64,000 nt of DNA, taken from the NCBI RefSeq assembly GCF_021028975.2, contig NC_059427.1:5022001-5086000 (forward strand), given 5' to 3'. This DNA is from Sphaerodactylus townsendi. Lineage: Eukaryota. Under the pieces are notes generated by a model. The model had not been told where the DNA came from and made no database searches. It saw only the letters and a list, made by a program, of their open reading frames with translations. Below are positions 28,875-64,000 of the stretch, in pieces. The number at the start of each line of letters is the position of its first letter. Positions within the stretch are counted from its first letter, which is position 1. The position numbers and the translations under genes are program-made.

Positions 28875-30242
<1,368 letters not shown>

Positions 30243-30838
30243 CTGAAATAAATGTAAAGAAGAAATGGAAGACAAAATCAGGAAATGAGCCAAATGAGGC
30301 AATTCAAACTTCTGTGGAGCATTATAGGACACAAACAGTCTGGCTGGGACGACACCCCTGAAAATTTGGTGGGGAAATGTTTCTGCCACCAGTGAGACAA
30401 CTGGATGACTGGCACTAACTACAGATCCAAAAGAGAACAGCAACTTCCCAAACCAGTCACTAGTTAAAAATGCTTTCTTTGATGCTCCTTGACTGCCAGT
30501 TGTTCTTCAAACCTTTGACCCCAGACTTCTGGGAGATGGGGACTCTGTTGGTAAAGCAAAGGACTGTGGGAGTTGTACTCCAGTTGGTCCCTCTTTACTC
30601 AGGAAAGGGCACCCTCTGGGCTACATCTCCCAGAGTCCTTCACTTTTTCTCATTTGTCATCGGGAACATGCTGCTCAATTATATATATGGATGGTGTTGA
30701 ACATCCCATTATTTAATAAGCAAAAGCTTGTGCAAATAAGGCTGCCAACATCTCATAACTGAATGAGTGCTCTGATTGTATGTTCCAGCATTGCAGGGGG
30801 TTGGACTTGAGGGGCCTTGGGGTCTCTTCCAACTCTAT

Positions 30839-31367
30839 GGCTGTTCCGCCGCGTCGCTTCCGCCCCTACGCCGCCAAAGAGTCGCGGTGAAGCCGGTTCG
30901 TGGAAACCCCACTGGCTATGCGGCGAGCGAGCAGGCGACGAAGCGACTCCGCCGCGAACCAGCCTCTGCGCTTCCGCCCACTCACGGTGATGCGCCGAGT
31001 TAGCCTGCTGAGGCGTCACAGCCCATGCGCCTTTGCACCCTCCGACCCCTGGAAGTTGGAGGAGGGACAGTGGGGGCTAACTGCACCATACGTGGCAAAT
31101 CGAAGATGAAACTGAACAGCGTCTTCCGGTTAAGCCTTGATTCGCACCCAGCGCCATGAGCTATCCCTCTAACAACAACCCTCTTTAAAGGGTTGTTAAG
31201 TTTAGAAGCGACTTGGCAACGCCTTCCCTGGGGAGGGAAGAAGAGTCGGAGTTGCCGCTGCTGCGTTGCAGGCAGCGGGCGCCATACTATAAACGACAAC
31301 CTGGGGGCTGGCACCTTTTGGCGCTGGGCAGGTCTGCTCATCGGACTTGTCTTGCATGGAAACGGCC
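30839..31367. mobile_element. CpG-rich Harbinger-like MITE inserted in a CR1 3' tail
   Basis: GGC...GGAAACGGCC termini, TSD TAT, host CAACTC-TAT|...|TAT-GATTCTATGA. Confidence 0.75.
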
Positions 31368-31439
31368 TATGATTCTATGAATGAATCATCACTTAAAAAC
31401 ATTTCAACTACATGGACCCTAGAAGCTCTTCCCTTATTT

Positions 31440-32680
31440 TTCGATTTCGATTTCGAATACCTTTAATGGCATATAGATTGTTTAAGATTAGCTTAGCAAG
31501 ATAATAACAGCCCTTTTTTACAACTTTACAATTTCTGGCGAAGTTAAATAATAACACCATTTAAAAAAAATTTATGCACCGCTTAACAGCCTGCAATGGT
31601 GGCTGACTTTTCTAAAAGACTCTATATAACCTTCTGTTTATCTGTAATGCCTTCACTTCCATGCAGGGAAGTGGGATTATGATGCTTCTTCCTACCTATC
31701 TCATAAAAGGGACAATCCAACAGGCATATGAGATTCTTGTTTCACTAGAACCCATGCCACACTGGCATTTCCTTTCTTTATGTGGGATTCCAAGGTGGCG
31801 CCCAAGGCTTCAGGAAGAAGGGCAGGGAGACATTACACCTAGCTAAGGTTGATTGCTCTACGCCACCGGTTGGCCTCAACCAGGAGATAAAAGGTACTGG
31901 GCTGCAATTAGTCTATCCATAGGTATTCCCAGAGAGATCGGGGGAACAGGTTTTATTAGCTTCCCTCTAGCGAATCTGTTGAAACTCTCTGTCAAAAAAA
32001 GTCTCTTCTTTGATAGCCCCATAGACCTCCTGCTCTGTTAGCATTAGCAGGTCCTCCAAGGAAATGCTGCCTAACTCATTAAGTTTGGCTTCGATTTTTA
32101 ACCTCCACCACTGGGTTGTTATTATTGGAGGATGGAGCTGGTCCCTGGGATGTATAGTCCAGTTCATCTCGATTAAAACAAATCCTGGCCCAAAACTTGA
32201 ATGTGCGGCACCAGGCCAGAGTTTCCAGCCGATGCTGGCCTTGTTTCTAAGCACCACAGGGCCAAAGCATAGGGGAACAGGAGACTGGGGCAAGCCAAGC
32301 ATTTTATACAGAAACTATGACTGGACCCTTTCAACCACTCTGCTCCATGCCCCTATCCAGATGGGGGATCCCATAAAGGGATTTGTTGACTCACTTTGGC
32401 ATTAAATGCTCTCAACGCTGCAGGGATGTATCCTCGGCCTTTCCCATAGAGGAAGCGTATAATGGCTGAGGCACTTAATTTAGCGGCGGAGATGGCCCGA
32501 TTCCTATGTAGTGTCCAGGAGGCCCTATGATGGTAGGTAAGCCCTAGGTATTTATATGACTGCACCTGCTCAAAACTACTGTGGCCTATCCGCCAATTGG
32601 TGGCTTTCCATTTATGGGTAAATACCACAATTTTGGATTTATCTAAGTTAAGTTGCAAATCGTTGAGTGTGCAGTCAACT
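31440..32680 (-). mobile_element. 5'-truncated non-LTR retrotransposon (RT C-terminus, RTE-X-like) in gene D intron 2
   Basis: LNLDKSKIVVF...EQVQSYKYLGL RT motif and (GAAATC)n tail at 31440-31457. Confidence 0.7.
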
Positions 32681-33409
32681 TATTTTAAAACTTCGTAGTG
32701 CTGACCTTACAACCTTCAATTCACTTTCACAATTGTTTGCAAGTGGATTTTGCTATTCTGCACAGTAAAATTCAGCTGCAAAGTAAATTGAAAGTGGTTT
32801 GAAAAAAGGGGTGGGGAAGAAAGTGCATTATTCTGTAGGTACGGAAGGGGCCTATAAGAAGCAATCTAATGTAGTCAGAATTACCACATCCTGGAAATTT
32901 ACTGAGCACAGTCTGAACAGCCCTTAAGCAGACCTCATGGTAAAAGGGACAATAGAGTAAAACATACTCTGTAGATTCAATCTCTTTTAGTTCACCAGGA
33001 AACAGCCCCTCTGCAAGATTAATCTTTCTACAACCACTGTCCAGAACAGCAGAGAGACGAACATGGTATCTGACAAGTGAAAATGCCTTTCTATGATTAA
33101 GAATTTTTAATATATATATATATTTATTTTATTTTATTAGGTTTTTGTACTGCTCCTCCCCTTTCAGGATCAGGGTGGTTAACCAGAACTAAGGTAAGTA
33201 GGGGGGCTAGGGAGGCACGGTGGGGCAGGGCTCTGTGGGGTGGCAGCCCGGAATAGCCTGAAGTTCAGCCAGCTGCGAAGAGCAGCCAGCTGAACTAAGG
33301 TAAGGGGGGCACCACGGGGAGCAGGGGGAAGTGCCTGGGCATCATTTTGCCCCGGGTGCCCCCCCCCCCCCCCCCCCCGCATTCCAGTGAAGGTAACTTC
33401 CCTCCTGTA

Positions 33410-33760
33410 CAGTGCTGGATTTATAGGCTTGGCAGGCTGAAGTTTAGGGCCTCAAAATCTAGGGGTCCTCCAGCCAAGGTGTATAATATTTTTGACACTG
33501 TTATAGACCTTCCTTACACGTGCTGTCATAACACACTATAGTCTCTAAACAATCCTTCAGGAATTTTCCTTGCACTCCCTTTCAGAATACTACTGTCTTA
33601 AGCTGATACCTTGACACTAGCATTCATTTCTGTATTGATTTTGTCCTGTCACCGAAGTAGACCCCACTTTGTGACCCCATTCTAGTTGTGGGGTGGGGGA
33701 TTGGGAGGGGCCTCATGAGCAGAATAGCCTAGGGCCTCCCCTGATCTAAATCCAGCACTG
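33410..33760. mobile_element. hAT MITE
   Basis: TIR CAGTGCTGGATTTA, 8-bp TSD CTCCTGTA/CTCTTGTA. Confidence 0.85.
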
Positions 33761-34060
33761 CTCTTGTATTACAAAAGTTTAAGGGACTGAGAGAGAAGTT
33801 TAAACCTGTAACAGCAGCCACTGAAAAATCAACCCTTGCGGCCTATGACTACTTTCTAGCCCTAAAGTGCATTCATTTATCTTGGTGGAAAAGTCAAGAA
33901 GTTCTCTGGGAATTGGAATTCTCCAATTTTATTCCTTCTGCTATCAAGATGTTCAAGATGTATTTCTCAATTTGCCGACAGTTAGGGTACACACCAACTA
34001 TACTGTCTTTTTTTCCTTTCACTGCTACATGATCATCTTCCCATCTAGAAAAATACTCAC

Positions 34061-34178
34061 TTTCATCAGCTATAGTTTGGAAGAAAGTGTCCTTGGGCAA
34101 TTTGCCTGGGGAAGCCTCAAGAATTTCTCTTGGCTCAGGGCCTTCCTGGGGTAAGTTCTCGTCTTTGATCTCTGTCAT
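34061..34178 (-). CDS. Gene D exon 2 coding part (MTEIKDENLPQEGPEPREILEASPGKLPKDTFFQTIADE); exon starts at 34189
   Basis: Acceptor CCCACAG|AT, accATG start, donor A|GTGAGT, 118 nt, intact. Confidence 0.75.
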
Positions 34179-34319
34179 GGTCCTTTCATCTGTGGGAGAC
34201 AGAGAACAGTGTAAGAACCCCCATACACTCAGTTGCAAGCTCCTTGAAGACAGGAGATGCTAAAGAGATGCAGAACAATGGGAGAGACAGAGGAGCCATC
34301 ACACCTCAATATATCTAGT

Positions 34320-34480
34320 NNNNNNNNNNNNNNNNNNNNNNNNNNNNNNNNNNNNNNNNNNNNNNNNNNNNNNNNNNNNNNNNNNNNNNNNNNNNNNNNN
34401 NNNNNNNNNNNNNNNNNNNNNNNNNNNNNNNNNNNNNNNNNNNNNNNNNNNNNNNNNNNNNNNNNNNNNNNNNNNNNNNN
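34320..34480. other. Assembly gap (161 N)
   Basis: Run of N. Confidence 1.
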
Positions 34481-36582
34481 TATACCCCGCCTTTCTCTCC
34501 TGTAAGGCAACACAAAGAGGCTTACAAACTCCTTTTCCTTCCTCTCCCCACAACAGACACCCTGTGAGGTAAGTGGGGCTGAGAGTGTTCTGAGAGAAAT
34601 GTGACTGGCCCAAGGTCACCCATCAGATTTCATGTGTAGGAGCAGGGAAACAAATCCAATTCACCAGATAAGAGTATGCCTCTCATGTGCAGGAGTGAGG
34701 AATCAAACCTGGTTCTCCAGTCCACCGCTCTTAACTGCTACACCACACTAGCTCTCACTTAAAAAGGAGATTAGACAGATTCATGGAGGAGAGGTCTATC
34801 AGTGGTTACTAGCCCTAGTGAATGAAGGGAACCTCCATGTTTGGAGTCAGTCAGCCTTTGAATAGCAGTGACAAAATATCAGGGGAGGCCATTGCTTCTG
34901 GACTCAGTTGTTGTACCTCCAGAAGAACTGGTTGGTCACTGTGTGTGAGACAAGATGCTGGACTAGATGGCCCACTGCTTTGATTCAGCAGGACCTTTGT
35001 TCCTTTGTCTAATGTCATTTGAAGGAATTCTCAGGTGGGATCCATTGTGGGGGTGGCCTGGAAGATTGTTTGGAAACTTCAGGTAGTCCCAAATGCAGCA
35101 GGAAAGTTAATTCAAGGTGCTGAATGTTAAAACCTTATGAAGCTTGAGACCTGGGTTCTGATAGAATCACCTATAGTACTGCCTGGGCACTGTGTTCATA
35201 TTTTTAGTTCCTCTTTTGTGCACCCCCTGCCCACAGTCAGAGGGGAAGGCTGTGGGACACTGGTTCTTTTCAGCCGTGTCTCTCAACTTTGGAGCACTTT
35301 CCCTATCAATGAGAATGAATTTTGTTAGACTTTGAAACATGACTTTTATTAATTTTGCCACAACAGACTATCCAATAACTGACCCCAAAGTGCTGCAGTT
35401 GTTATGACTCTGTTTACACGTCCACTTGAAATCTTTCTCCACCAACCATCTACTGCAAGATCTTTTCTCCATTCTGCAGTCCTTCTAGCATCTACCATTG
35501 CTCAAACTACAGGAAAGCCTTTTCACAGCTTTGGTCCTTTCCAACCCCAACCCCAACCCTCATCAGGTGCCACCCCCAAATATCCAGGATTTCCCCCAAC
35601 CCTATCAGCATTGGAAATGTTTCAGCGGCTGATCGTACACTGCTGTTCTGCCACGCAGCGAGGATATGTTTCCTTTGTGGCAGAGATTCTTATGCAAACA
35701 TGCTCATACTTATGGCACTGCTGATCCTGGAAGCTCTGCAGTTAGTAAGCATGTGAAACCCCCAATGTTTCCTTTTGTGTCAAGATTTTGCTCCTTCCAG
35801 GTTTTTCCCGCATCCAAGCCCAGAATGAAGATTGCCATCTTCGGGGGGTTTTCACCCTTTAAATCTAATATCGATATTCTTTGTTTTGATATTGTGCAGG
35901 CTGCTACCATTTTTTGCTTTTTCAAGAAAATGCAAGCATAAAAAAAAATAGTAGAAGCCTCCACAATATCAAAACAAAGAATATCAATGTTACACTTCAA
36001 GGGATTAAAACAAACAAACATAGCAATCTTCATTCTGGGCTTAAACGGGGGGGGGGGGGGGGTTTGACCTGGAAGGAGGGACAGGCAAGCTGCACAGCGA
36101 GCAGTGGGACATCTCCTTGAATGGAAACAAGGAACTGCAAGGAAACCCCACTGTGAAGGCACTGTGGGGTGAGGAGCAGCAAGGGAAGCACCCCGTGTAT
36201 GTTTCCTTTGCTCTCAGTGTTATTGACTTTCCAGCAATAACTGTGAGTGCATCTCCGCATCAGATAAATTAATATCTGATGGTTTCTAATTTAGCAGGGG
36301 AATGTTTTCCATTTTTGCTTCTTCCTACCACAATGCCTGCAGTTCTCAAAGTGCATATATGTGGGGAAACTAGTTGCTCAGAGGGAGTGTAATTTCCACA
36401 CTTCACACGCTCTGAAGGCCGAAGAACAAAGTCCCCCTAGAACACTGATGGCAAATCTTTTGAACTTGGCATATCAAAAATCAGGAAAATGCGTAAATTG
36501 ACTCTTCTGGTGTGTCCCCTGCCCCCTCAAAAGAAAAACAATTCTTTACACATTCATTTATCTAAAAAAAATGCAGTCCAAT

Positions 36583-37054
36583 TGTAACCCCCATGCCCAG
36601 AATGGGTTGGCCCAGAATGGGTTGACCCAGTAAGGGGGTGGAGACTCGGAGCAGCAGAGAGGCTGAAAGAGCTCTTTTGCAGAAGAACAAGGCTACCAGA
36701 CTCGGACCTTGATTTCTATAAGCCCTTAACACCTTGTTAAGGGTTTTCTTTTGTGGTTGTAATGGGTGAGAGTTCTCCTGGAGACCTTCATCATGTTGCA
36801 ACCTGTTCATCAAGCCCTTGGAGTCTTCAGGAGCCAGCCAACTTGCAAAGAAGAAATTGGACTTGGCAATATCAGTAGACTGTAAATAGAAGGACTTGAA
36901 ATGCAACCTGAACAGGACCTTGAATTGTAACGTTAAATGTTGATGTTTTACAAGTGTTAATTGTAAAGAAAAGTAAACCATTTTGTTGTTTAAATTTGGT
37001 TCTTTGCAACTCATTCCAGGTTCTGCCCCACAGAACCCACAGAAGGAGGTTACA
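36583..37054 (+). mobile_element. Solo LTR (Gypsy/ERV-type), 472 bp
   Basis: TGTAAC...GTTACA, 4-bp TSD CAAT, TATAA at ~36717, AGTAAA at ~36972. Confidence 0.85.
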
Positions 37055-38817
37055 CAATCATGTGCACTGCTATCCATTATTTAAAGAGACATCAAATAAT
37101 GACAAAAATGACTCAAACGCAAACAGGAAGAGTAGTTGTTGTTGGGGTGTCACCCAAAACCTCGCAGCATGTCACTTTTGACATGCATGCCATAGGTTTA
37201 GTCATAGTGGCCAAAAAGATTCCCTCCTCCCCATTTTTTACTTTCATCATGAAGTCTGATAAAGTTAGCTCTGCATTTCTGAGATGTTCCGCAAGGCCTA
37301 CGGTTCAGGCAGCTGTGACTTATCATCTAATCTGTTTCTTCCCTTCCCCATATCCTCTCTGCTATATTACAGGAAAAAAATCTTAAGATTAAGGAGATGT
37401 GCAGGTTTTTTGGATATTATTTTAGGAAATGACCCTCAGGGGCGGGCATCTTTTTTTTAACTGCTGGGAAGTCCTACGATACGAATTCGTTCACTGTTCT
37501 AATATTAGGTGCTATGTGTTATTACTGTTATTAATTGGATTACAGTAGGTTGGATTGTTAAGAGTGCATTTCATTGTTTTATTTGTATTATATTGTATGA
37601 CATTACAGAATGATATCACTGTATTAAATTATTGTATGATATAAGATGAAACGTTTGGATTTATACCCCACTTTTCTCTCCTGTAAGGAATCTCAAAGTG
37701 GCTTGCAAACTCTTCCCTTCCTCTCCCCACAACAGACACCATATGAGGTCGGTGGGGCTGAGAGAACTGGCCCAAGATCACCCAGCAGGCTTCATGTAGA
37801 GAAGTGGGGGAAAATCCAGTTCACCGGATAAGAGTCCGCCATTCATGTGGAGGAGTGGGGAAAAATCCAGTTCACCAGATAAGAGTCCGCCATTCATGTG
37901 GAGGAGTGGGGAATCAAACTCGGTTCTCCAGATCAGAATCCATTGCTCTTAACCACTATACACCACTGGCTCTCTTGTTCGCTGCCTTGAGCCTGGCCTT
38001 GCTGGGGAAGAGCGGGATAGAAATCTAAAATAAAGTACTTCCCTGAGCAAAAGTGGGTGGTAAATGCTTTGGTCCATACCAAAGCCCCCAAACAAAGAAA
38101 AAAGTCATGTCAAATCTTTTATTAAATACCATCCTGCTTGCAGGTTTTTGAGTTCTCCAGCACTTTTTTTTTTTTTTGCTGCATGCTAAAAAGAAAACAA
38201 AAGGGAGGGAGGCAGGAATCTTTTTCATCCCAATGACCTTAAGGCCCCTTTGTTCTGTGTGGATTTGTTCTGCCTCCTCCAGAGTGTGTGAAGTGTGACT
38301 GGTATCAAGTGACACTGACTAGACCATGCCTAGGCATTCCGGGAATTCTGGGAGGAAGACGCAAAGACAGAAGCCATTCCATTGCAAAACTGAACCATTA
38401 AAACTGAAAAAAAAAAACCTGAAAAAAACTTTAGGAGACTTCTGAGACCAGACTGGGGGTTCAGGCACTGCATGGCAGTCTATCATACCAAAACCAAAGG
38501 AATGTACTTGTCCTTTTCTGAACAACGCTGGACAGTCATTTTCATCATCACCACTCCAAGTAAAGAATGTGAGGCCAAGAGGGGTCATATTCCCTAGTGG
38601 TCATCACAGCAACTCATTCCATGCCCTTGTTTTCCCTGCAGCCCCCCTCCCTCTAAATGAGCTAAATCCACCTACTCCAAAAAACATCAGTCAAGTGTAT
38701 CCATGGCAAAAATGCAAAATAAATTACATTCAGCGAAAATAACCAAGCTTTTGAGACACCCCCCACCGGCACCCCACTTCACCCCTTTCTCCCTCCCAAG
38801 CTCTCTTTGCAACTCAC

Positions 38818-38986
38818 CAGCTCCCTCCCAGTCTCTGAAGCATCAAATAGAAGCTGATTTGCTTTGGGCAGGAAGGGTATTGGAATACATTATTTTCTGC
38901 AGCCAATTCCCCCCCTCCTTCCTTCTGAATGCCCGTCTAGGACTGTGGCTCAGTCTCTTTAACCCTTAGAGAGGATCTCAGAACTT
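38818..38986 (-). promoter_or_regulatory. Gene D putative non-coding exon 1 / core promoter block
   Basis: AAGGGTTAAAGAGACTGAGCCACAGTCCTAGAC ... GGAGCTG|GTGAGT. Confidence 0.6.
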
Positions 38987-39008
38987 GTGTTATTAGGGAA
39001 ATGAAAAA

Positions 39009-39011
39009 TGT

Positions 39012-39070
<59 letters not shown>
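39009..39070. repeat. (TG)n(AG)n compound microsatellite next to D exon 1
   Basis: Directly visible in the sequence. Confidence 0.95.
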
Positions 39071-39073
<3 letters not shown>

Positions 39074-40259
39074 CACACTGGACTTGACGGCCCTTGTGGT
39101 CTCTTCCAACTTTATGATTCTATGATTTTCTTACCAAACTTCAGGATTTCCCCACCACTAGCAACTTCTTAGCATTGCCAGCGAAGGAGCTCAGTATTTC
39201 TGCTGATTTTATGTCTAAAGTTCAAGGAAGGAAATCTAGAGTTTGAAACGACTGAGCACTTCCTCACTTTCTTGCGTAATTTACTCCAATCTGAGAAAAT
39301 TTCTGGATCCTCATCTTAACAAGAAGGGCTTTTGTTTTTGTTTTGTTTTGTTTTGCTCCCCTAATTATTATTTAATGGATTTGTTTGCGGGTCTGAATTT
39401 TAATTGAACAGTGGATGCTTGTGAATGCATAACTAGCTGCTATTAAACGTCATTTGTTTTTAAATAATAATGAGCAGCATTAGAATTTTTGTTTTATTGC
39501 TGTGTTTTGTTGGACAAATGGCCTACATGCTTTAAGACTTAGATGGGAAATTCAGAGGATTCAATAAAAGGACTATTGGCTTCAGATGGGACCCAAAGAT
39601 CCCCTGGCATTACAAGTGATCCCCAGACTACAGAGATGAGTTCTCCTGGAGAAAATAATGACTCTGGAGAGTAGATTCTTTGGCATTGTACCCCACTGAG
39701 GTCCTTCCCCCAAACCTGCCCTCCCCAGTAGTGTTGTCAACCTCTTGGTGGTGACTGGAGATCTGGAATTATAACTGGTCTCCAAGAGATCAGTTTACCT
39801 GGAGAGAACGGGAGATGGATTCTACGGCATCATGCCCCACTGAAGCCCATCCCCCCCCCCAATAAAGCCTCAGTATGGGCTAGTCCCTGGAATACTGTGA
39901 ACACCACTACAACACTTTGAAATAGACAGATAAGCCCCACCCTTATATAAAAAACCCCCACTGACCACCAAACATAACTACATCTTTCCAGCTAACACCT
40001 GGAACATATAGAAAATCTATAGCTTACACTACAGCGATCTTGAAGCTGTGCCTTACTTTAAAGGTTATATTGTTAAGGATGAACAAGTTGAAAGTGAATG
40101 TTGACATGACAGAAGTAAAGCTGGTTGAGAAGGCTGAGGTCTGAGCAACATGGTGTGGGGGGGTCCTGCTGACATTTTTTTTTTACTGTGCTAAGAGCCG
40201 TGGTGACACTGAATCCAGCACTATTACTAAAGAAGTAAGTTAACATGGCTGCAAAAAGG

Positions 40260-40560
40260 TTATTCTACCAGTTTCTTTCAGTGTGGAAGATTACCTTGAT
40301 TTGGCTAATCTGCCCATATTGATCTGCGCTATGGTTACTTCAAGGCTAGACTACTATAATGCATTCCACATGGGACTGTCCTTAAAAACAACCAGGAAAC
40401 TCCACTTTGTGCAGAACACCACCGCCCAGTTAGTACTGGGCCCCAGGCAAGACAAATGTCACACCCATTTTGCAGAGACTCTATTGGTTAACAATCAGTT
40501 ATTGTTTTCAACTCAAGGTTACCATTATCACCCACAAAGCCTTGAATGGCCTATTGTTAA
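40260..40560 (+). mobile_element. L2 LINE ORF2 C-terminal fragment (other L2 pieces at ~5500-5900 and 53400-54120 on the - strand)
   Basis: VTSRLDYYNAFHMGLSLKTTRKLHFVQN. Confidence 0.75.
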
Positions 40561-43137
40561 AAGACTCACTTAGGTCTTGCAAACTGAGGGTTGTGGTAAT
40601 TGGGTCAATCTCATGTTGGGTCTTTCTTTTTTCCTGCTGCCTTCAACATTTCCTAGCATTATTGTCTTTTCCAGCAACTCCTGTCTTCTCATAGCATGAC
40701 CAAAATATGATAGTAGTCATATTAGATTCATATTAGCAGTCAAATTAGAAAAACCAGTGTGGTATAGTGGTTAAGAGTAGACTCTAATCTGAAGAACCGA
40801 GTTTGATTCCCCACTCCTCCACATAAGCAGAGGACTTTTATCTGGAGAACTAGATTTGTTTCCCCACTTCTACACTGCTGCTGGATTACCTTGGGATATT
40901 CTTTGGAGGCAGATGGGAAGCCTGGCAGAAGGGCGGATTGGCACTGCTTATTGACTGGGCCTGGGCACCAAGGCACCACTGGTTTGGCAGGTTGCCTTGC
41001 CTATTGGGGGTTGGGGGGAAGCAGGAGGGTGGTGGCAACCCAGTAGAGAGGCAGGCATCAAGGCACTGCTGCTGCAGCAGGTCATTATGGTGAGTCCTGC
41101 ATGCCCATTGGCTGGGGGGTTTGTCCTTGGACATTCCATCTCTTAGGGAATTATGTGTCAGATGTTCTTTATAAGACAGCTCACTAAAAGATTACTGAGC
41201 TTTTGATTGAAAGATTGCACATTAGCAGTGAAGAGGAGATGATTAAAAAACTTCTCATGGGAGGTAACTCCTCAATTACAGTCCAGACTGCAAAATATCA
41301 TGCAATATTACTCAGAGCTTGATGACTTCCATGAATTAATCCTGTAGATTTCCTGTTCTACTTGATTTAACTTTATTGTAACTCAGTTTATATGATTAGG
41401 TTTTGTTCTTTTTTTTAATTGACAAAAAGCTGTAAATAAATCTTCTCTTATTCCAGCTTTCAGGAGTCAAAGCTCACTTCGTCAGATGCTAGACATGACA
41501 AAGTCATATGAGCTTTGAAACCATATGCTTCTGGAAAATGTTATTGGTCTTTAAGGTGTTACCAGACTCAAATTTTGTTATGAAGTGAAGGTACAGTTGC
41601 TTTTATTACACTACCTTTTCCTTGTAATCTACTTCCTGTATTGTTTATAGCATTCCTGCTTTAGTTTGTAGTTCTCCCATTCAGTAATCCTAGTTCTACT
41701 GCATTGTTCATTGGTTGTTTTATGAAGGCCCTTTCAGCAGAAACCTTTTGAAATGAAATGTTTTGAGGCAGGAAATAAAACGTTCCCTCCATGGAGTTCT
41801 GCATTGTTTTTACCCCAAAACGTTTTATTTGTGGCTTCAAAACATTTTAAATGAATGTCCTTTTTAAAAGATTATTTGGTTGGAATGTTTTGAAAATGTC
41901 TTCAGTTGCCTGTGCAATCTCTTTAAGATGTTTCCCATGCCTCTGTGCTGTTCCCAGATTTCCTCCTGAGCCCCATTTTCTGAGCTCACTCCGTTTCCCC
42001 TTGCCTGTTTATTTGAACTATTTCTGTTTATTTTTTTATTAGGTGGGGGATTAGTCTTCAAAACATTGAGTATGTGAGGTGCAGAGAACTCTGTTTGGAT
42101 TCCTTAGACTGAACTTCCTTCTACATTCTAAGCATTTACATTGTTATGTACAACAGCTGGATGGCACTGTCAAGTTTTGGATCAACCACAAGATTATCTC
42201 CCAGACTTTCCAGTGCCAGTTGGCATTCTATACGAGAGGAAAGGACTGCAGGAAATGACGTAACTCATTTGCATCCTATCTAATTGGAATTCCAATGGTT
42301 AAATGAATACTGTAACTTAAACTGTGATATGATGAAATCTGAGGCAAGTTATATTTTAAGAGAGCTGAAAGCACCCAGAGACAGTTACAGCATATGCCAT
42401 TCTGGTTCTCCTGTCCATTCTCTCCTCAAGTAGACATTTTATTTAAGTGGGAGAAAAGACAACATTTAAAGGTCACAAATTAGCAAAATACAGATAACAG
42501 TACAAATAAAAATGTGTCTTCCTACAATGTCTTCCTTTTAGAGATATCACATTAACCACTTCTATGTCACCATTCAGTTTATTCTTATAATTCTGTAATC
42601 CCTATAAATAAAGAACAGGCTCCACCATGTACTCAACGTGTGTGTATGTGAACTGCCGTAAAGTCACAGCCAACTTCTGGTAACCCCAGCAAGAGGCTTT
42701 CAAGAGAAGTGAGTAGTAGAGAAGATTTGCTATTGCCTTCCTCTGCAAAGTCTTCTTTGGAGGTCTCCCCTTCCAAGTACCGCTTAGTTTCCAACATCTG
42801 ATGCAATCGGGCTACACCATGTTGAAGCGTTACGAGCAAAAACTACCAGAGCATGGCCACACAGCCCAGAAAACCCACCTGAAGGACGTTCAGAATGAGC
42901 AACTCTTTGTGCTACACATATTTTCTCTGATGCAGACTCTACAATATGAAATGAGAATTCTGCTCACTCCAATGCTCTGCCCATACTAAAGGATTTACAG
43001 GTATGGTCACTAATGTTAATTCTCAAATTTCAGAGCTGATGTATCATACAAGCTCCCAAACAGCCTGAGCATTTAGACAACCTACCCATTCAAATATTTT
43101 ATTCACGGACAAGACCTTTCCCCAAGGCTAAATTGAT

Positions 43138-44570
43138 CTATTGTTTTTGCCTAGTGTGAATAAGTTCATGTCTCATAAGGTTTGAGTGTTGGCTGAAGCA
43201 AGACCCACATTCCTGGCATTTAAATGGCTTCTCCCCCGTGTGGATTAGTTGATGTCTAAGAAGGTTTGAGTTGTGATTGAAGCAACTTCGGCATTCCAGG
43301 CATTGATATGGTTTCTTCTTGTTTTGGGTCCTAGGCTTGCTTTGGTTCTCACTGAAGCCCTTTTTACATCCCCCCGTACATGTATTTTTATGTCTCCTAA
43401 GAGTTACACTGTGACTGAAGTTTTTCCCACAATCCAGGCATTTAAAGGGTTTCACATCTTTGTGGATTTTTTGATGATTCATAAGCCTTTCACCCAGACT
43501 AAAGCTCCTTCCACATTCCAAGCATTTGTATGGTTTTTCTCCTTTGTGAAGGAGTTGATGTTTTATGAAGTTTGCTTTCGTTGTGAACTTTTTTCCACAT
43601 TCTGAACATTCATGCAATTTCTCTCCAGTGTGTATTCTTCGATGCATAGCAAGACTTGAGGTATGCCTAAAGCTCTTTCCACATTCCAAACATGCATATG
43701 GTTTGTCACCTGTGTGGGTACTTTGATGCATTGTGAGGTTTGTACTAGTGATAAAACTCTTTCCACATTCTAAACATTTATATGGTTTTTCACCTGTGTG
43801 GGTTCTTTGATGCATAATGAGATTTTTACTCTGTGTAAAGCTCTTTCCACAATCCAGACAGGTGTAAGGTTTCTCTCCTGTGTGAATTAGTTGATGTCTA
43901 ATGAGGGTTGTACTTTGCACAAAGCTCTTTCCACACTGTAAACATTTATACGGTTTTTCACCAGTGCGGTTTCTTTGCTGTTGGCTGTGGCTGAAGGTAT
44001 TTGCAGGCTTGTGGAGTAGATACAGTTGTTCTTTTGCATGAATTTTTTGATGTCTAACAAGGCACGATCTTACAATAAACCTCTTTCCACATTCCAAACA
44101 TATATAGGGTTTCTCTCCTGTGTGGATTCTTTGATGCACAATGAGGTATGCACTATATGCAAACGTCTTTCCACATTCAAAACATTCATATTGTTTCTCC
44201 CCAGTGTGGGTTCTTTGGTGTACCCTAAGAGCTGAGCTCTGACTGAATCTCTTTCCACACTGCAAGCAGTCATATGGTTTCTCCCCTGTGTGGATATTCC
44301 AGTGTGTTTTAAGGTTTGGTATACTAGCAAAGCTTTTCCCACAACTAGAACATTCAATCCTTCTCTTTCCTTCCTGTACAGCTTCATGGTAGTTACCTTT
44401 GTGATAAACAATAGATTTATTGTTTCCTTTATCCAGCTGGTTTCCCTCCTGGTTTTCTGGGACATCATGATTTCCTTTCACTTCTAGGTTTGTGTCACTT
44501 TCCTCCAATACCTGATGAGTTTCGTTTTCATTAGCTGTGTCCCATGGATCTCTAGTTGAAACAGAGAACC
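43138..44570 (-). CDS. Gene E exon 3: C2H2 zinc-finger array
   Basis: 488-aa ORF. Acceptor TTTTATCAG|GG TTC TCT (phase 1). Ends RQKQ*. Confidence 0.92.
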
Positions 44571-45394
44571 CTGATAAAAATTTAAAGAAGAAATGGAAGG
44601 TCACATAAGGAATGGAGTCAAGTGAAGCAATTCAAACTCCTGTGGAGAATTATAGAATACACATGCTATGTCTGTGAGGGCACCCCTTCAAACTTTGGTG
44701 GGAAGATGTTCCTGCCACTAGTGAGACAACTGATTAAGTGACAGCAATTAAAAATCCAAAAGGACATACTAGCTACCTAAGAATGTCATTAGAAACCCTT
44801 TCTCTGATGACATGATAGGAATAAGATGATGATGCCTTGTGTGGGAGCAAAACCAGCCATCTTGCTTTGCTCTAAAAAACCCCTTACAACCTCTCAGGTA
44901 ATAGGCTGCTTATTGGTTTGTCTCTCTTTCCCTCTGTTTTTCACTCAGATTAAAATTGCAAACATTGGAGATGAGGACTAGCAAAAAGCATTTGTTGTCA
45001 ACTGATACAAATACTGCCATACTTCATTGGTTCCTGATTTTGTTTCCTTGTGCCATCATTTCTCATATTTTACCACAACCTAAAAACCTGGAGATGGTCT
45101 CATGTCTCTCAGGACCACTCTGAGGCCTAGTCAGATATGATAACGCTGAGAAAGATCCATGCCCACACCAAAGGAAAGCCTCTGCTATTCTGAACAGACA
45201 ACACTGGCTAAATAAACTCAGTCTGCTTATTAAATATCAATAAGTGATATCACCACATGGGTCAATAATGACCCGGTATTTGCACCTTTACTTTTGTTAC
45301 AGGATACACTGTTCAATTTCCAAATACTTAGGAAACATTAACTATTCCGGGTTTTTCCCCTCTTCACTATCCTCCAGTCTGGAAAAATACTCAC

Positions 45395-48072: not shown

Positions 48073-48171
48073 CTCTTTGGAAACTGGAAAAAAAAAAGGA
48101 TGGTGGAGGGGAGGGAAATCTCATTCTAACTTACTTTCTCACCAACACTTGAGATTTCCCACCCACTGGTG

Positions 48172-49461: not shown

Positions 49462-49497
<36 letters not shown>

Positions 49498-50868: not shown

Positions 50869-51025
50869 AAGGGTTAAGGAGACTGAGCTGCAGTCCTAGA
50901 CTGGCATGGGGGGGGGAGGGAAGAAATAGCAGCCTTAAGTCATTTATTATGATCCCCTTCCTGCCCAAAGCAGGCTACCCTCTGTTTTCTCCCAAGGTGA
51001 TGCTCCAGGGGCTAGAAGGGAGCTG
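50869..51025 (+). promoter_or_regulatory. Gene F putative non-coding exon 1 / core promoter block
   Basis: AAGGGTTAAGGAGACTGAGCTGCAGTCCTAGAC ... GGAGCTG|GTAGGT on the + strand, matching F orientation. Confidence 0.6.
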
Positions 51026-51529: not shown

Positions 51530-52071
51530 TGTAACCTCTTTCTGTGGGTTCTGTGGGGCAGTACTTGGAAGGAGTTGCAAAGAACTAAATTTAAAACAAA
51601 ACAGTTTACTTCTCTTAACAAATAACACTTTTTAAACATTTAACATTAACACTTTACAGTCCCGCTAAGTTTGCATTTTCAAGTCCTTATATTTACAGTC
51701 TACTGATATTGCCAAGTCCAATTCTTCTTTGCTGGTGGTTGGCTTTTGAAGACTTCAGAGGCTTGGTGAACGGGATTCAAGATGATGAAGGTTCCCAGAA
51801 AACTCTCACCATTTACATACACAAAAACCCTGAAACAATGAATTCTAACATTTACAATATAGCAAAAAATATATATAAACAACTCCCTTCCCACTAGTTC
51901 CTAACAACATTGCAGTTACCTTAAACAAGGTGTTAAGGGCTTAATAAAATCAATCAAGGTCCCAGCCTGGTAGCCTCGCTTCCTCCAACCTCATGAGTTC
52001 TGCAGCCTTCTGCTTCTTTTCAGACTCCACCCCTTTCTGGGTCATCATCCCATTCTTACAAAAGGGTTGCA
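51530..52071 (-). mobile_element. Solo LTR, same family as 36583-37054
   Basis: TGTAAC...GTTGCA, 4-bp TSD GTAA, shared TTCTGTGGGTTCTGTGGGGCAG...GAGTTGCAAAGAAC. Confidence 0.85.
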
Positions 52072-52330
52072 GTAACAGAGAGGCTGCTGTTCATTTTTCT
52101 CCCATGCACCTTGATATACAGATCCTGTAGCTAAGGCATCAGAGTCTGCAAAGCATATTTGCCTTCCCCAAAGACACTTCCAGTTCATCTCTTCTTTGTG
52201 AGGGGATACAGATAATTTGTTTGCAACCAGTTCAGTTAAGGGGTGGATGGAAGGAGACATCTGCTGTGAGGAAATTGGGAGTGTGGTTTTGGGTTCTTAC
52301 AGTTTTTTTCTGTCTGCTATAGGTAAAAAG

Positions 52331-52442
52331 ATGATGACAGAGGCGAACTCTCAACAGGAAGGCCCGGGGTCAAAAAGAATGCCTGAAGATTCTCCAGGAG
52401 GATTGTCCAAGGGTATTTTCTTCCAAAATATGGATGATGAAA
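52331..52442 (+). CDS. Gene F exon 2 coding part (MMTEANSQQEGPGSKRMPEDSPGGLSKGIFFQNMDDE); exon starts at 52323
   Basis: Acceptor GCTATAG|GT, donor A|GTGAG, 112 nt (37 codons + 1). Confidence 0.78.
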
Positions 52443-55400: not shown

Positions 55401-55656
55401 ATTGCTTTCCTCTTGTCAACAGAGAAATAATTTCTAAATGGTAAATTATCTCAGGTAATTGATTTATAGATGACATTTATTTATTTATTTATTTATTTAT
55501 TTATTTGTTTGTTTGTTTGTTTCCTTTAAGGCAGGAACATTGCCCTGCCAAATTTTAGAAGGGATATTTCTCCCAAATAGATTCATTTTTTCATTTCATG
55601 ATCTGATGTTCTTTTTCCTCTTTGCACTGATGTTAAGATTTTCTTTATTTCAACAG

Positions 55657-57410
55657 GAGATATGTGGGACATAGCAGAAGAAAATGTAGCACATCAGTTA
55701 ATGGAGGAAAGTGATAAGAAACTGGACATGAAACAAAATATTCGAAATCAGAAAAAAAACATTACGGATAAAAGAAGCAATAAACCCATTGCTTATCAGA
55801 ACAGTGATTACCAAACAACAATATGCAAAGGGAAGGGAAGGATTCAATGCTCTTTCTGTGAGAAAAACTTTGCTAGTATATCAACCCTTAAAGTACATTG
55901 GAAAACACATACAGGGGAGAAACCATATGACTGCCTGCAGTGTGGAAAGAGATTTAGTCATCCTTCAACTCTTACTGTACATGAAAGAACTCACACAGGA
56001 GAGAAACGATATAAATGTTTGGATTGTGGAAAGAACTTTATGCTGAGTACCAACCTCATTTTGCATCAAAGAATCCACACAGGAGAAAAACCATATCAGT
56101 GCATGGAATGTGGAAAGAGCTTTAGCCTGAAGAAAAGCCTTACTCTTCATCAAAGAATCCACACAGGAGAAAAACCATATAAATGTTTGGAATGCGGAAA
56201 GAGTTTTAGTCAGAAGTCAAGTCTTAACATCCATCATGGAACACATACAGGAGAGAAAAGGTATAAATGCTTTGAATGTGGAAAAAAGTTCATACAGAGC
56301 ACAACCCTCATTTTGCATCAAAGAATTCATACAGGAGAAAGACCTTATAAATGTTTGGAATGTGGAAAAAGCTTTATTGTGAAGTCAAGCCTGACTCTTC
56401 ATCAAAGAATTCACACAGGAATAAAACCATTTAAATGTCTGGAGTGTGGAAAGACCTTTAATGAAAGTACACGTCTTCTTAGACATCAAAGAATTCATAT
56501 GAGGGAGCAATCGTTTCAATTTCTTGAGTCTGGAAAAGGCTTTAGGCGGAGTACAACTCTCACTGGTCATCAAAGAACCCATACAGGTGAAAAACGGTAC
56601 AAATGTTTGGAATGTGGGAAAAGCTTTAGGCTGAGTACAACACTCATTATTCATCAAAGAATTCACACAGGCGAAAAGCCATATAGGTGTTTGGAGTGTG
56701 GAAAAAGCTTCATGCGAAGTACAACCCTCATTGTACATAAAAGAACTCACTCAGGAGAAAAACCATATATTTGTTCAGAATGTGGAAAAAGTTTCATGCA
56801 GAGTGCAAACCTCATAATACATCAAAGAACACACACAGGTGAGAAACCATATAAATGCTTGGAGTGTGGAAGGAGTTTTATTCAGAATTCAAGCCTTACT
56901 GCCCATCAAAGAAGCCACACTGGGGAAAAACTATATGACTGTTCAGAATGTGGAAAGAAGTTCACACGGAATGCAAACCTTATAATACATCAAATACTGC
57001 ACACAGGGGAGAAACCATACAAATGCTTGGAATGTGGAAGGAGCTTTACTTTGAGCAAAAGACTTATTAACCATCAAAGAATCCATACAGATGTGAAACC
57101 ATTTAAATGCCTGGATTGTGGGAAAAGCTTCAGTCATAGCATAACTCTTAAGAGACACAAAAATATGCAGGCAGGGGAATGTAAAAAAGGTTTCAGTCAG
57201 ACACAAAGCAATCCAAAAACTCAAACCAAAAAGAAACCATATCAGTGCTTGGAGTGCCGAAGTTGCTTCAGTCACAACTCAAACCTTCTTAGACATCAAC
57301 TAATCCACACAGGGGAGAAACCATTTAAATGCCAGGAATGTGGATATGGCTTTAGCCAGCACTCAAACCTTATGAGACATACACTTATTCACACCAGGCA
57401 AAAACAATAG
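55657..57410 (+). CDS. Gene F exon 3: C2H2 zinc-finger array, closest paralog of B
   Basis: 582-aa ORF. Acceptor TTTCAACAG|GA GAT ATG TGG. Ends RQKQ*. Confidence 0.93.
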
Positions 57411-60400
57411 AAATGCTCAGAGTAAGGGGAAATCTCTTTTCCATGAATAATGCACAAATAGAGCATTCACTCGGACAGATCATCTAAAGGAACGTACTAA
57501 TAAAAGGAAACATTTCTTCACACAATGCATGATTGGTGTTTGGAATATGCTGCCACAGGAGGTGGTGATGGCCACTAAGCTGGATAGCTTTAAAAGGGGC
57601 TTGGACAGATTTATGGAGGAGAACTCGATCTATGGCTACCAATCTTGATCCTCCTTTGTCAGAGATTTCAAATGCCTTAGCAGACCAGGTGCTTGGGAGC
57701 AGCAGCAGCAGAAGGCCATTGCTTTCACATCCTGCATGTGAGCTTCCAAAGGCATCTGGTGGGCCACTGAAATAGAGTGCTGGACTAGATGGACTCTGGT
57801 CTGATCCAGCAGGCTCTTTCTTATGTTCTTATGCATGATAAATCCATTCTAAAATGCAAGAATGTCAGAGACAATACCTAGAAATGCTTGAGTATGGAAA
57901 GAACACTGATATGGATAGGATCCTAGCTTTGTATCATAGAGTCCAAACCTGTAAGAATATCATCAAGCAGAGAGGTTTGCTCACTCAGAATATTTTCCGC
58001 TTTTCTGCATTTCACTTGTTCCTTTTAGATATATTCAGTATTTGAACAATTAAGAAATCTGGATCTCCAGACAATACTTTCATTTCCTTACCAGCTGAAC
58101 ACAATTTAGCCACTTTTGGTGATATGTTCAATAATGTAGTTAAAAGATCAAGAATTCAAGTTGGACACTTGGCTGAACACTATTAGACTCAACCAACTTG
58201 TTCTTTGAGTTCATAGCAATTAAATTCATTCCTTCTTTCTCCTTCTAAGACCTTATATTTCTTTTGCCTCCTGACACTCATAGAGATTGCAAGGGAAAGA
58301 GTGGAAGGAAAGTATTCATTTTCTTTTGCACCATGTCTGATGGGTTGTGTGGTTAGTTGAATATTGAAATTTAAGCTACAGTGATTGCTGGAGACAAAGT
58401 TATATTTTAGAAGAGCTGAAAGCAGTTGTGCAAAGTTAAAACATACCAACATTAATATGCCTGTTTCTTCTATGTATTGTCAGCTCTCATGAAGCAAATA
58501 TAATATTTTCAGTTTCTGGAGCTCATCGTTATGATTGGCAGTCTGTGTAGGCATAGGAAAGACCTGAACAGGTTCATCTGCTGGATGCTGTTATGGTGGA
58601 AAGCAGCAGGGTATAGCCCAATCATGTCAAAGCTAAACTAACAAGTCTCTGCCAAAGAAGGCGATAGCAAACCAACTCTAAGGCCCTTTCTGCAGGGCCA
58701 ATTAACCTAGGATAATACCGGTAAAAAAACCAGTTCCAAGGGGCAACTTTGCATGGCTCCCACCCCTAAAACGAGGCTGCCCTTCATTCCCCCCCCTCCC
58801 CAAAGCGGGTTATTTGAGAACTGCGCTATTCACTATTTCATTTTAATGTGTTTGGCAGCCACTCGCAAGTAAACATCTGTCCTGGAAAGAGCTTTTCTCA
58901 GCTGTGCTTTCTAGTTTTTAATGTCCCCACCTGCGTAGCCATGTGGGGTTGCAGGGACGTTTGGTGGCAGCGCGAGACATCAGCATGGCTGTGGAGGCCA
59001 TGTCTGTCCTCCCTTGTGACTATGCAGCATGGGATTCTGTATTCAGTATTCTGAACAAAGCCACGCCTCCGTGCGAGGGTGTGACAGCAGCCCGCATTGC
59101 CTCCATGGGCTCCAGTCGCTGCCTGCACGGAGGTGTGCAAATTGGGCAGGAGAGAGATCGAATTCCTGTATCCCTCCTGCAACCCGCTCTCCCTGTGCCC
59201 AAGTCTTACTTGCTTTGAAATCCCCTTGCCATAAGTCACTTGCAACTTGATGCCACTTACATAAATAATTTTGCTCCGTGTCCTTTACCACTGAGGGTGA
59301 TCCCAAACTTTGAGGGAATTCACATGTTAGGAACTCCGCATGGACTTTGTATCAGGCATTCCGTGGGAGTTCCATGCTTCGCAGTTTCATGTGGGTCTGA
59401 TTCAGTTCAGGACTCTTCCCACGGCACCATTTTCCTAAAAGAAAATGGCTGCAGAGAGGTACAATTTGCCCCATTGGATAATCTCGTGTGTACTGATGGC
59501 CTGTCATCAATATTGATAAGATTGTTAGGGTATAATAGGAGATTCATATGATATATAGCAATGTATATCATTAAAGATGTGGGCAGGGAGGCTGGGGTTA
59601 CTATTTACCCTAATAGAAAACATACCCAGGAAAATGGAGTATAGTGTACAATGGAGAAACCAATACAAGCAAAAGCAAGTTATACCCGAGCTACAAAACA
59701 ATGATTACAAATGTGACAAGTACAAAAAGTGCTAAACATATTTTAATATAAACATGCACATGTGACTGCAGATTGTGTCCAGATTGGCACAAAATATTTG
59801 TATGGCTATGGTGAATTGTGGAGATTCTTGAGTCTGATGTTACTCTGCAGCAGTGGCGTAGTGGCTAAGAGCAGGTGCACTCTTATCTGGAGGAACTGGG
59901 TTTGATTCCCAGCTCTGCCGCTTGAGTTGTGGAGGCTTATCTGGGGAATTCAGATTAGCCTGTGCACTCCCCCACACACCAGCTGGGTGACCTTGGGCTA
60001 GTCACAGCTTTTTGGAGCTCTCTCAGCCCCACCCACCTCACAGGGTGTTTGTTGTGAGGGGGGAAGGTCAAGGAGATTGTAAGCCCCTTTGAGTCTCCTA
60101 TAGGAGAGAAAGGGAGGATATAAATCCAAACTAATACTACTACTCCTACTACTCCTCCTACTCCTTTAGTTTCTGGGTTTGTGCAGACACATGTGCACAT
60201 TTATATTCAATATGTTTAGCACTTTTTACACATATCACATTTGAATCATTGTTTTGTTGCCTTATTTATACAGTATAGCTTATTTTTGCTTAGCTGTCAA
60301 GTATCTGTCCAAACTCCATCCTTTCTTATGTTGCTATGTGGGACTGCACCCATCGTTGTAGAGGGGTGCTACAGGCCTTATAACTGCCCATAAGAGTTAT

Positions 60401-62685
60401 GGGAGTAGCCTGACTCATTAACAATACCACAACCTCACTGAAGCTCAGCAGTACAGGTCTCCTCAGTGCCCGAATGGGAGAACTGCACTGTGTAGAAAAT
60501 TATCTCCAGCATCCCTTCCAATCTTAACAATAATTTACTGCAGCGGGAATGAGCCGCAGAGTTCTGCTGCTTTGTGTGCTAATGAATTTCTTCTACTCTA
60601 TGTCTGACAAGCATACGATAGATTTTGCTTTCCCTGTCAGCCAGGATTCCAATTCAGGAATCAACCACTCTTGAGACGGAAGGGCAAATTACAGATCTGT
60701 GGGGGGAAACAGAAATCTGCTGCCTAAGGGTAGGAGGGAGTATGTGAGCCCCTCTGAATTGAGCCTATTTTGGCTAGTCAGAGACACTGGGTATGTTTCT
60801 TGGGCCTTAGAAGATGACTGAACATTGGGGTTTTTTCTTGTGTATTGCATTTTAGGACAACAGCAGTATTTTTTGCCAGATTTGACTGTTGGCAGGTGCT
60901 ATAGACTGCCTCATTACAGATCAGTTTGCAGATAAATAGGTCTTAGGACTGTATTCCAAGTCTTTAGAATCTTAAAATAGGTTAAAATGGATTAACTGAG
61001 CTTTATTGACATTACAAGCATGGATACATATGGATATGCATATAGATATAGATATATATCCACCAGTAGACAGCTGCCCATACTATCTTAATGAGAGATA
61101 TACTATTGTAGGTTACTATGTATGGACCTTGTCTGAGGCCTTGGGCTAGCTTACACAGAAGTATTGTCAAAGGCTTTCATGGCCAGAATCGGTTGGCTGT
61201 TTTGGGGTTTTCTGGGATACCGTGACATGCCTCTGAAGATGCCAGCAAAATGTTAGGAGCAAAAACTACCAGATTGTGCCCTCACAGCCTGGAAAACCTA
61301 CAACAGCCAGTTACACATAAGTCTTTTTATAACAACGGTAACCAACCTGTCACACAAAAAATTAGAAATGCAGAATCATGTTCCACTTAACCTGCGTATC
61401 CCTTCTGGTTCTGACATTTTGTTTTGTACTTTTTCCTATCCCCTTCCTTTGTCTCTAAATTTGCTAGTTTCAATATAGTACTTTAATTGAGAATTCAAAA
61501 TAATCTCAGCCTTAAGGTAAAATTTATTTTCAACCTGTTAGATGTATCCAAATGTGAAATAAAAGACATTACTTAAAATAAAGAAGGGCTTCTGGAACTC
61601 TGAAAGAAAGCTGTGGCCAAACCACAAACTGGGTGCCATGATGGGAAAGACTTGGCTAGTGTCAAAATGTAGAAGGTCCCTAGCCAAGTAATTTCCTGCA
61701 GCAGACAGAGCTAAAGTGCCTTGAACTCCAAGGAGACAGAGGAAAGCTAGGACTGGCTCTTCATAAGATGCTGTTTGGTGGTAATCAAGAGGGAGGTGCT
61801 ACAGGGAGAAGATCTATGTGTTTTTGCATTTTAGAGGGTTGAACTTGATGGCCTTTGGGGTCTCTTCCAACTCTATGATTCTGGGATTCTAAGCTGAGGA
61901 CATGCAGATGGGATGCTGCCAGTAGTGGGATTCAAATAATTTAACAACCGTTTCTGGTGGTGGGATTCAAATACTTTAACAACTGGTTGTTTACAAGCAC
62001 CATTTTCCCTGCTCCATTAGAGGCTCTTTTCAACAAGTAAGTGCCAAGAAACACATGGTTGGGTGCTGCTGTAGACACTCCAAGACCAGTCAATTATTTT
62101 ATTTACTTTTCAGAATTACTTCAGAGCCAGCGTGGTGTAGTGATTAAGAGCAGGTGGATTCTAATCTGGAGAACCGGGTTTGATTCCCCACTCCTCCACC
62201 TGGATGGCAGGGGCTTATCTGTTGAACCAGATGCATTTCTACATTCCTGCTGGGTGACCTTGGGCTAGTCACAGTTCTCTCAGGACTCTCTCAGCCCCAC
62301 CTACCTCACAAGGTGTCTGTTGTGGAGAGAGGAAGGGAAAGGAGCTTGTAAGCCACCTTGAGTCTCCTTACAGGAGAGAAAGGTGGGATATAAAGCCAAA
62401 CTACTCCTCCTCTCCTCCTCCTCCTCCTCCACCACCACCACCTCCTGGCCTTGACCTGAATTGTCCAAGATACCCTGATCTCAACTCAGATGCTGAGCAG
62501 GGTACAGGGCTAACTTTGATCAAGGTTGATAAACACTACCTTCATATATAAAAATAAATTCCAAATATCTTTGGAGGTTTTTAAAGAGAGGCTGGATGAA
62601 TATATGTCAGGAGTGTTTTGATTGTGTAGTTCCTGCACAGCAGGGTGTTGGACTTGATGGCCCTTGTGGTCTCTTTCAACTCTAT

Positions 62686-63300
62686 GGCCGTTTCCGCACG
62701 GCCAAAAGCAGCGACGCGATGACGTCGCAAATTGCGACGCATCCCAAAAAAAGCGTTCACACAGACAGGCGGAGCTGCGGGCGTCCGCAGCCCCGCAGAA
62801 ATGTGACGGTTCGCACTGAAGCGCTGCGGAAGCGGCGTCTCGCGACGTTGCGCCCTCTGGCGGCCGCAGGCCTGACGTCATGCCCACGCAGCAGTGCGAT
62901 GGACAACGTGACTGCCCTGATGTCCTGCCCGTCCCCCATCTGTCAGTGCCTCCCCTCCCAGCTACTGTCAGTCCCAGTGCATGGGTCTGGGAAAGGTGCT
63001 TGGCCATGCAGGGAAAGCACCAGGGACAAACGTGTGTGTGTGTGGGGGGAAAAGGTGACCCAGCTTGGCCGTCTGGCAGTCGCCATTTTGAAGACGGCTC
63101 CCTTGCGGCTGTTCGCACGAGTGCGGCGTCGATGCGTCACAGGGGGAAAAAGAGTGGTTTAAAGCGTTTTCTGATCTGGCGTCTTGGCGGTTTAAATTTC
63201 GCGGCGAATGCGCTGCCCTTCGCAGCGTCGCGAAGCAGCTCGCTATAGCGAGTTCTTTTACCGCTTCCAGCGTCATAATTGCGCCGATAAAGGCTTGGCC
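62686..63300. mobile_element. CpG-rich Harbinger-like MITE inserted in a CR1 3' tail
   Basis: Left TIR GGCCGTTTCCGCACG, right end GGCC, flanks TAT/TAC, host CAACTC-TAT|...|TAC-GATTTTATGA. Confidence 0.7.
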
Positions 63301-64000
63301 TACGATTTTATGAAATGCATGACTCAATATTTCCCATTCTTTAAAAAAAAAGAAAAGGAAAATTCATCCCTGCATGCAGAGCCAAACTGCACAAGATGCT
63401 GTCCCCAGGTTTGCCCTGAGGACACACCTCCATTTTATAGAGTCACAGAGAGCACCTTTTAAAAGCACAGTGGGGAAGGTCTCTAACCTCTCATCTGCAG
63501 TTTTTCTCTGACTCAATGGCCCTGGAGGAGACAAGTTAGCACAGAATGCCCTCCAGTACCATTTGTGTTCAGAAAAAAAGTGCAAGGGAAAGGCAGGAAT
63601 CTTGCCTCCTGCTGTGCTGTGATGATCCTAACCAAAATTGGGCTGCCTATAGCACTCTTAAAATCCCTGACTACAAAATGGAGGTGTATCCTGAGGCTGC
63701 CCTTCCCATCAGGTAATGTCACATTAAAACATTTTTCTAGACAGACTATGTTTGTGGGGGTTTTATGCCTTCTCCAGTCATCTATACTTTATCCCCACAA
63801 GCTGGGTACTCATTTTACTGACCTCAGGAAGATGGAAGGCTGAGTCAGCCTTGTGCCAGATACCTGAAACAGACTTCTGTCAGGCTCGAACTCAGGTTGT
63901 GAGCAGAGCTTGGACTCCAATACTGCAGCTTACCACTCTATGCTACTGGCCTCCACTGAGAGGGTGTTAACCTTCATTAATGGGGACTTGCTTTCTGAGG

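Follow-up and report, generated by a model that had tools for sequence, protein, structure and literature searches.

The window analysed here is a stretch of 64,000 nt (contig NC_059427.1, positions 5,022,001 to 5,086,000) of vertebrate-type DNA, with 43.5% GC and a CpG observed/expected ratio of 0.23. [quoted passage not shown] M1 is a CpG-rich element of 529 bp (30839-31367, + strand). It follows a 5'-truncated CR1 3' tail (30765-30838, + strand) that ends in CAACTC-TAT, the left copy of the target duplication being 30836-30838, and it is followed by the right TAT and the remainder of the CR1 terminal octamer repeat (31368-31380, + strand). M2 is a CpG-rich element of 615 bp (62686-63300, + strand). 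The 5'-truncated CR1 end upstream of it (62568-62685, + strand) comprises the last 17 codons of an open reading frame and the 3' untranslated region and again terminates in CAACTC-TAT (left duplication 62683-62685, + strand); downstream lie the right duplication TAC, with one mismatch, and the remainder of the CR1 terminal repeat (63301-63313, + strand). The 3' sides thus read TAT-GATTCT for M1 and TAC-GATTTT for M2, and the 3-bp duplications (TAT/TAT and TAT/TAC) were checked against empty CR1 copies. In the window, BLAST and fuzzy searches located four CR1 tails, of which two carry an insertion and two are empty. The empty ones lie at 39079-39127 (+ strand, site CAACTT-TAT-GATTCT, sequence CAACTTTAT) and at 61826-61888 (+ strand, site CAACTC-TAT-GATTCT at 61868-61882). 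Because the latter tail has this sequence, the TAT duplicated by M1 and M2 is that of the first terminal unit. The position of both elements at one CR1 TAT, their duplications and the presence of empty tails were all correctly described in the first-pass annotation of this DNA.

Besides the window, the evidence consists of contigs from four of ten related public runs (X7, X10, X9 and X1), which were compared with the M2 locus only, and of published papers. Statements on contigs hold among the matches listed (32 of 38,041 pieces, 24 of 747 loose-end rows and 12 of 14 between-joint rows), and contig depth is a rough guide only that gives no copy number. The octamer ATTCTRTG, given as the terminal repeat of CR1 (PMC2612034), is seen in the tails of the window and in the loose-end consensus of all four runs. 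Loose ends that go on beyond the insertion site continue with the octamer and read as empty tails (716, 662, 624 and 236 contigs in the four runs). The tails of the window, 49-118 nt long, are truncated so that they do not reach back to the reverse transcriptase domain. In the related runs, the depth of CR1 tails exceeds that of single listed contigs 4x10^4- to 1.4x10^5-fold. In the host of M2, 62568-62621 translates into 17 residues and a stop, a peptide that we take to resemble the C-terminus of CR1 ORF2. A (GT)n(GA)n microsatellite (39003-39078) directly adjoins the empty tail at 39079, and a GT/G-run joined to the CR1 tail is also present in contigs of three runs.

M1 and M2 start with GGC and end with GCC, as does M3 (6714-7272, - strand), a 559-bp relative of M1 in opposite orientation that lies inside a short interspersed element (SINE) and is flanked by a duplication of AGA/AAA, as checked against empty SINE copies. 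The SINEs of the window resemble gecko SINEs. Terminal inverted repeats of PIF/Harbinger elements start with GG(C). By their GGC ends, 3-bp duplications and non-coding sequence, M1 and M2 fit Harbinger-like MITEs, with no transposase among the frames scanned: Pfam gave none in 14 of the 18 long frames, the other four being within zinc-finger arrays. Other superfamilies with 3-bp duplications may also accommodate M1-M3. Two stop-to-stop frames over M2 matched no Pfam family and Rfam had no match anywhere in the window, null results by which a structured-RNA or coding identity of the elements was ruled out. The three elements have about 60% GC and CpG observed/expected ratios of 0.9-1.1 (0.92 in M1 and 1.08 in M2), and no other part of the window is CpG-rich; the CpG richness, which the first reading had seen in M1 and M2, suggests young age or protection from methylation. 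Over the 14 terminal bases, compared ungapped, inverted-repeat identity is 9/14 in M1, 6/14 in M2 and 8/14 in M3, and the repeat search reported no terminal inverted pair in any of them. M1 has an intact right end and a degenerate left one. In M2 the left end is intact and the right end matches only its inner GGCCAA (positions 15-20 of the left end), which suggests that the outer 14 bp were lost between two GGCC repeats.

M1 and M3 align, in opposite orientation, over 437 columns, of which 314 are identical (z 13). M1 and M2 do not align (local score z -0.1 and 1.0 relative to 60 sequences simulated with an equal dinucleotide composition), in agreement with the different interiors ascribed to them at the outset. 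M2 and M3 have the left terminus in common, and any resemblance towards the right end is weak at most (z 2.1). The statement that two of three family members share the site therefore holds in that M3 is in a SINE, and fails in that M2 shares only its ends with the others. A five-way alignment of the three elements in mixed orientations was uninformative. Internal palindromes include one of 24-26 bp common to M3 (6865-6890, perfect) and M1 (31174-31197) and 14-bp ones in M2 (63239-63252) and M3 (7177-7190).

M2 belongs to a multicopy family in all four related runs, where its depth is hundreds to thousands of times that of single contigs. Relative to CR1, family depth is 9-15% in X7, 3-5% in X10, 0.6-1.7% in X9 and 1.3-1.6% in X1, a roughly tenfold spread hinting at lineage-specific bursts. 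The left 500 bp represent a large family in these runs. Within the last part of M2 (63175-63300), the stretch 63182-63274 is without cover in all four, which is not proof of absence, and a loose end at 63174 goes on with a diverged version; M2 is perhaps a subfamily whose right end is distinct or damaged. Metagenome scans gave no match to the M2 end or the CR1 tail, and viral contigs none to the CR1 tail.

M1 and M2 were inserted independently at one nucleotide, since their interiors cannot be aligned and they have different outer flanks. The zinc-finger cluster of the window is a duplicated one, a setting in which both copies could descend from one insertion through regional duplication; this origin is hardly conceivable, given that the interiors are unalignable though the CR1 parts of the two hosts are 84% alike over 75 nt, and that the flanks past the CR1 parts are unrelated on both sides. 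The interior and flank alignments refute a segmental duplication of the region, so that the check on copies and flanks proposed with the original observation excludes it. Another way to inherit the site would be retrotransposition of a CR1 master already bearing the MITE. The CR1 terminal octamer does follow both MITEs, and both have the orientation of CR1. This explanation is nevertheless very improbable: two masters would be needed, carrying unrelated MITEs at one base, which still amounts to two hits, and off-site copies of the M2 family exist. In addition, a contig of X9 (record 32) aligns from 63300 through the octamer and has 16 further letters, themselves not displayed, that are unlike the M2 end, as would be the case if the right flank of M2 belonged to an older, empty CR1 tail; the last 120 bp of M2 are without cover in every run.

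How surprising a shared site is depends on the length of the target preference that is assumed. With M1-M3 removed, the window holds 10,949 A/T-centred sites and four CR1 first-unit sites. The probability that at least two of three insertions fall on a CR1 first-unit site is 4e-7 if any A/T triplet is used and 3e-6 under a TWA/TAT preference (W, A or T), so the earlier contention that the coincidence goes beyond a 3-bp TWA preference is upheld. It rises to 1e-4 under C-[A/T]3-G, to 0.4-0.8% under CWC-[A/T]3-GW and to 7-11% under CTC-[A/T]3-GA, the longer patterns having been picked post hoc, i.e., after the insertion sites had been seen. A short preference fails to explain the coincidence and a long one can.

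The window contains further GGC-ended insertions, and two of four long-type insertions, or two of the eight GGC-type ones found, occupy the CR1 site. Four are short MITEs of other families, none of them in CR1: A, of 140 bp (16475-16614, no strand assigned), with a TAG/TAA duplication; B (13490-14078, no strand assigned), split by another repeat, with TAA/TAA in C-TAA-G; and C and D, of which only the right ends were recognised, at 25346 and 32852. The fourth long-type insertion is E, the left end of an element with an M2-type terminus (58673-58701, + strand, element start 58682). The original count of three members was thus too low. E matches the left end of M2 at 17 of 20 bases, which none of 100 shuffles reached, and is preceded by CAACTC-TAA within a different, non-CR1 dispersed repeat.

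These other sites bear on the alternative that target preference goes no further than a short C-[A/T]3-G and that the shared site is a coincidence drawn from a very large scan, perhaps with selection tolerating insertions in dead repeats within a zinc-finger gene cluster. A-D show only a C at -1, often with a G at +1, and A and B match the CR1 flank at just 5 of 12 positions; many windows were scanned and any repeated site would have drawn notice; and no bridging contig occurs among the matches listed for the four related runs. Even so, we regard this alternative as unlikely. Its own null gives a probability of about 1e-4, and the sites of E and M3 independently carry CTC flanks, with a joint background frequency of about 6e-4. 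E also supplies a third CAACTC-TAW-GGC junction: CAACTCTAWGGC occurs three times in the window, once outside CR1, where 0.02 occurrences are expected.

The flanks of the long-type insertions point to a candidate motif. The SINE site of M3, as the majority of eight empty copies, reads AGACTC-AAA-GTGGCT, so that CTC stands beside the A/T triplet at all four long-type ends of the window, and C occupies -1 in 6 of 6 readable sites (background 23%). On the other strand, the right half at the SINE site is GAGTCT, compared with GATTCT in CR1. A palindrome built on the empty SINE site's left half alone matches the CR1 site at 9 of 12 positions, a score reached by 10 of the 10,949 A/T-centred sites. 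CR1 and SINE sites perhaps share, in part, a 15-bp quasi-palindrome. A hairpin at the CR1 site as the signal gained no support, the empty tail folding as RNA no better than shuffles (z 0.25).

The related runs speak to a stronger proposition, namely that the elements are CR1-tail specialists with most copies at this nucleotide, much as Dada elements are found in small-RNA genes, and that the tail is a selected safe harbour. In the window, unrelated elements of like orientation fill two of the four CR1 tails at one and the same base, and CR1 tails are abundant and conserved, the traits named for targets of site-specific elements (PMC3706591). One contig of X7 joins a CR1 tail to the start of M2, with undetermined letters between the two. 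On the other hand, M3 and E lie outside CR1, and both readable M2-family junctions in X9, a run of a related species, are off-site: in one (record 30), the first 162 bases of M2 come after 13 letters unlike the CR1 tail, and in the other M2 starts 36 nt past a CR1 site, after ATC-TAT. None of the 21 CR1-tail pieces listed extends more than 2 bases into M2. That the loose ends read as empty tails also counts against specialisation, weakly, as it holds among the matches listed and M2-family depth is no more than 1-15% of that of CR1. Contigs of X7 that start at 63304 and at the first base of M2 were judged uninformative. Nearly all copies at one site, as in strict Dada-like specificity, is not what M3, E and the X9 junctions display; the contig cases argue against it, although they are few and give no share of copies at the site. 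We consider such specialisation quite unlikely. A related proposal is that reptile Harbinger-like transposases have a 15-bp preference tuned to the CR1 terminus, so that several unrelated MITE families put a large share of their copies at one nucleotide of a LINE tail; this, too, is unlikely. Sequence-specific targeting had been proposed at the start: a sequence-based choice of site is likely, but, given M3, E and the X9 copies, the CR1 tail as such is not supported as the target. The suggested safe harbour, which would be a matter of selection, is not supported either.

We consider it probable that the insertions at the same TAT are due to a Harbinger-type transposase that prefers a long target sequence, and for which the CR1 tail is a passive sink. 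PIF/Harbinger elements require a transposase and a Myb-like protein, and their target preference, set by the element's proteins, extends over 9 bp in plants and 15 bp in vertebrates (PMC2836001); the target of Harbinger3_DR is the 15-bp near-palindrome AAACACCWGGTCTTT (PMC3016246). A preference longer than the duplication is usual for this superfamily, whose usual preference had been given as TWA. At the present locus, an autonomous element would supply the transposase and its Myb-like partner, and the complex would recognise some 3-6 bp to either side of the cut. The predicted target core is CTC-[A/T]3-G, perhaps within a 15-bp quasi-palindrome, to which the CAACTC-TAT-GATTCT of the CR1 tail would be a near match. 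Because they are so numerous, roughly 4x10^4 to 1.4x10^5 judging from depth, CR1 tails would make up a large share of the best targets, and the tail would be a passive sink and not a target that the elements evolved to find.

Several observations weigh against this explanation. If the preference spans no more than 9 bp, the coincidence still has a probability of 0.4-11%, and the motif was picked afterwards from a tiny sample of only four long-type sites. The right end and the duplication of E are not established; a right end near 59502 was not accepted, as it gives TAA/TGT and no clear inverted repeat. Two empty homologues of the host repeat of E do not read CAACTC, so later mutations may account for some of the match. 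The palindrome is sensitive to its source: built from the present left flank of M3 it gives CR1 7/12, which 161 of the 10,949 sites equal, and from either right half 5/12, equalled by 14-15% of sites. The direct likeness between CR1 and SINE sites, 7/12, is attained by 3.7% of sites. The duplication of M3 is of AAA and not TWA type, the copy close to a CR1 tail in X9 is preceded by ATC-TAT and not CTC-TAT, and M1 and M2 may use different transposases.

Known systems offer partial parallels. Harbinger3_DR and Harbinger3N_DR of zebrafish are likewise vertebrate elements, with non-autonomous members, a duplication of 3 bp and a quasi-palindromic 6+3+6 target that extends beyond it (PMC3016246, PMC2836001). 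There the motif is AAACAC-CWG-GTCTTT, proven by many copies and a transposition assay, whereas the core here is CTC-[A/T]3-G, read from four sites. The excerpts of both papers describe no LINE-tail location for the Harbinger3_DR target. Maize PIF/mPIF and rice mPing, which are Tourist-like MITEs, share a 3-bp A/T-rich duplication and prefer a 9-bp target, as determined by proteins of the element (PMC2836001); they differ in being plant elements with known autonomous partners, while here the partner is predicted and one duplication is of AAA type. Dada and Pokey are DNA transposons at a fixed position in a multicopy sequence, and Pokey, like the present elements, also inserts elsewhere; Dada, which forms a separate superfamily, targets host RNA genes with strict specificity (PMC3706591). 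In the present case the target is the tail of another transposon and specificity is not strict. MITEs nest in MITEs, and L1 and Alu in the A-tails of retrotransposons, where an abundant repeat offers many preferred targets and insertions recur at one position. Unlike those, here a DNA transposon enters the octamer-repeat end of a LINE. By these analogies, target choice appears akin to that of Harbinger3_DR or mPing and not to strict targeting of the Dada type. No description of Harbinger-like elements at CR1 tails was found in the literature, with Repbase, Dfam, subscription papers and supplements outside the search, and the excerpt of PMC8151067 has nothing on targets. Repbase, Dfam or subscription papers may describe these families already. 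The pattern is real and non-random, and the elements most likely represent new MITE families whose long target preference is of a kind already known.

The surroundings of the elements are repetitive in their own right. Six mutually similar long exons lie at 543-1799, 8168-9926, 17667-19496, 28480-30484, 43098-44816 and 55591-57472. A Pfam scan of two of the six gave C2H2 zinc-finger arrays of 16-17 fingers; since the six exons are similar and the two scanned are such arrays, the window is a duplicated zinc-finger gene cluster. An assembly gap of 161 N occupies 34320-34480.

If the motif is real, it would be a second vertebrate Harbinger target motif beside that of Harbinger3_DR, and a long preference together with an abundant LINE would lead to repeated insertion at one nucleotide. 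Repeated insertion of this kind would be a source of homoplasy for presence/absence markers, and it would yield spurious composite "CR1-MITE" consensus models in repeat libraries of reptiles. Should the less probable case of a transposase tuned to CR1 be true, it would be a natural transposase that sends its cargo to some 10^5 dispensable sites and would connect loose preference with strict targeting of the Dada kind, in a DNA transposon lineage that has another transposon as its landing pad.

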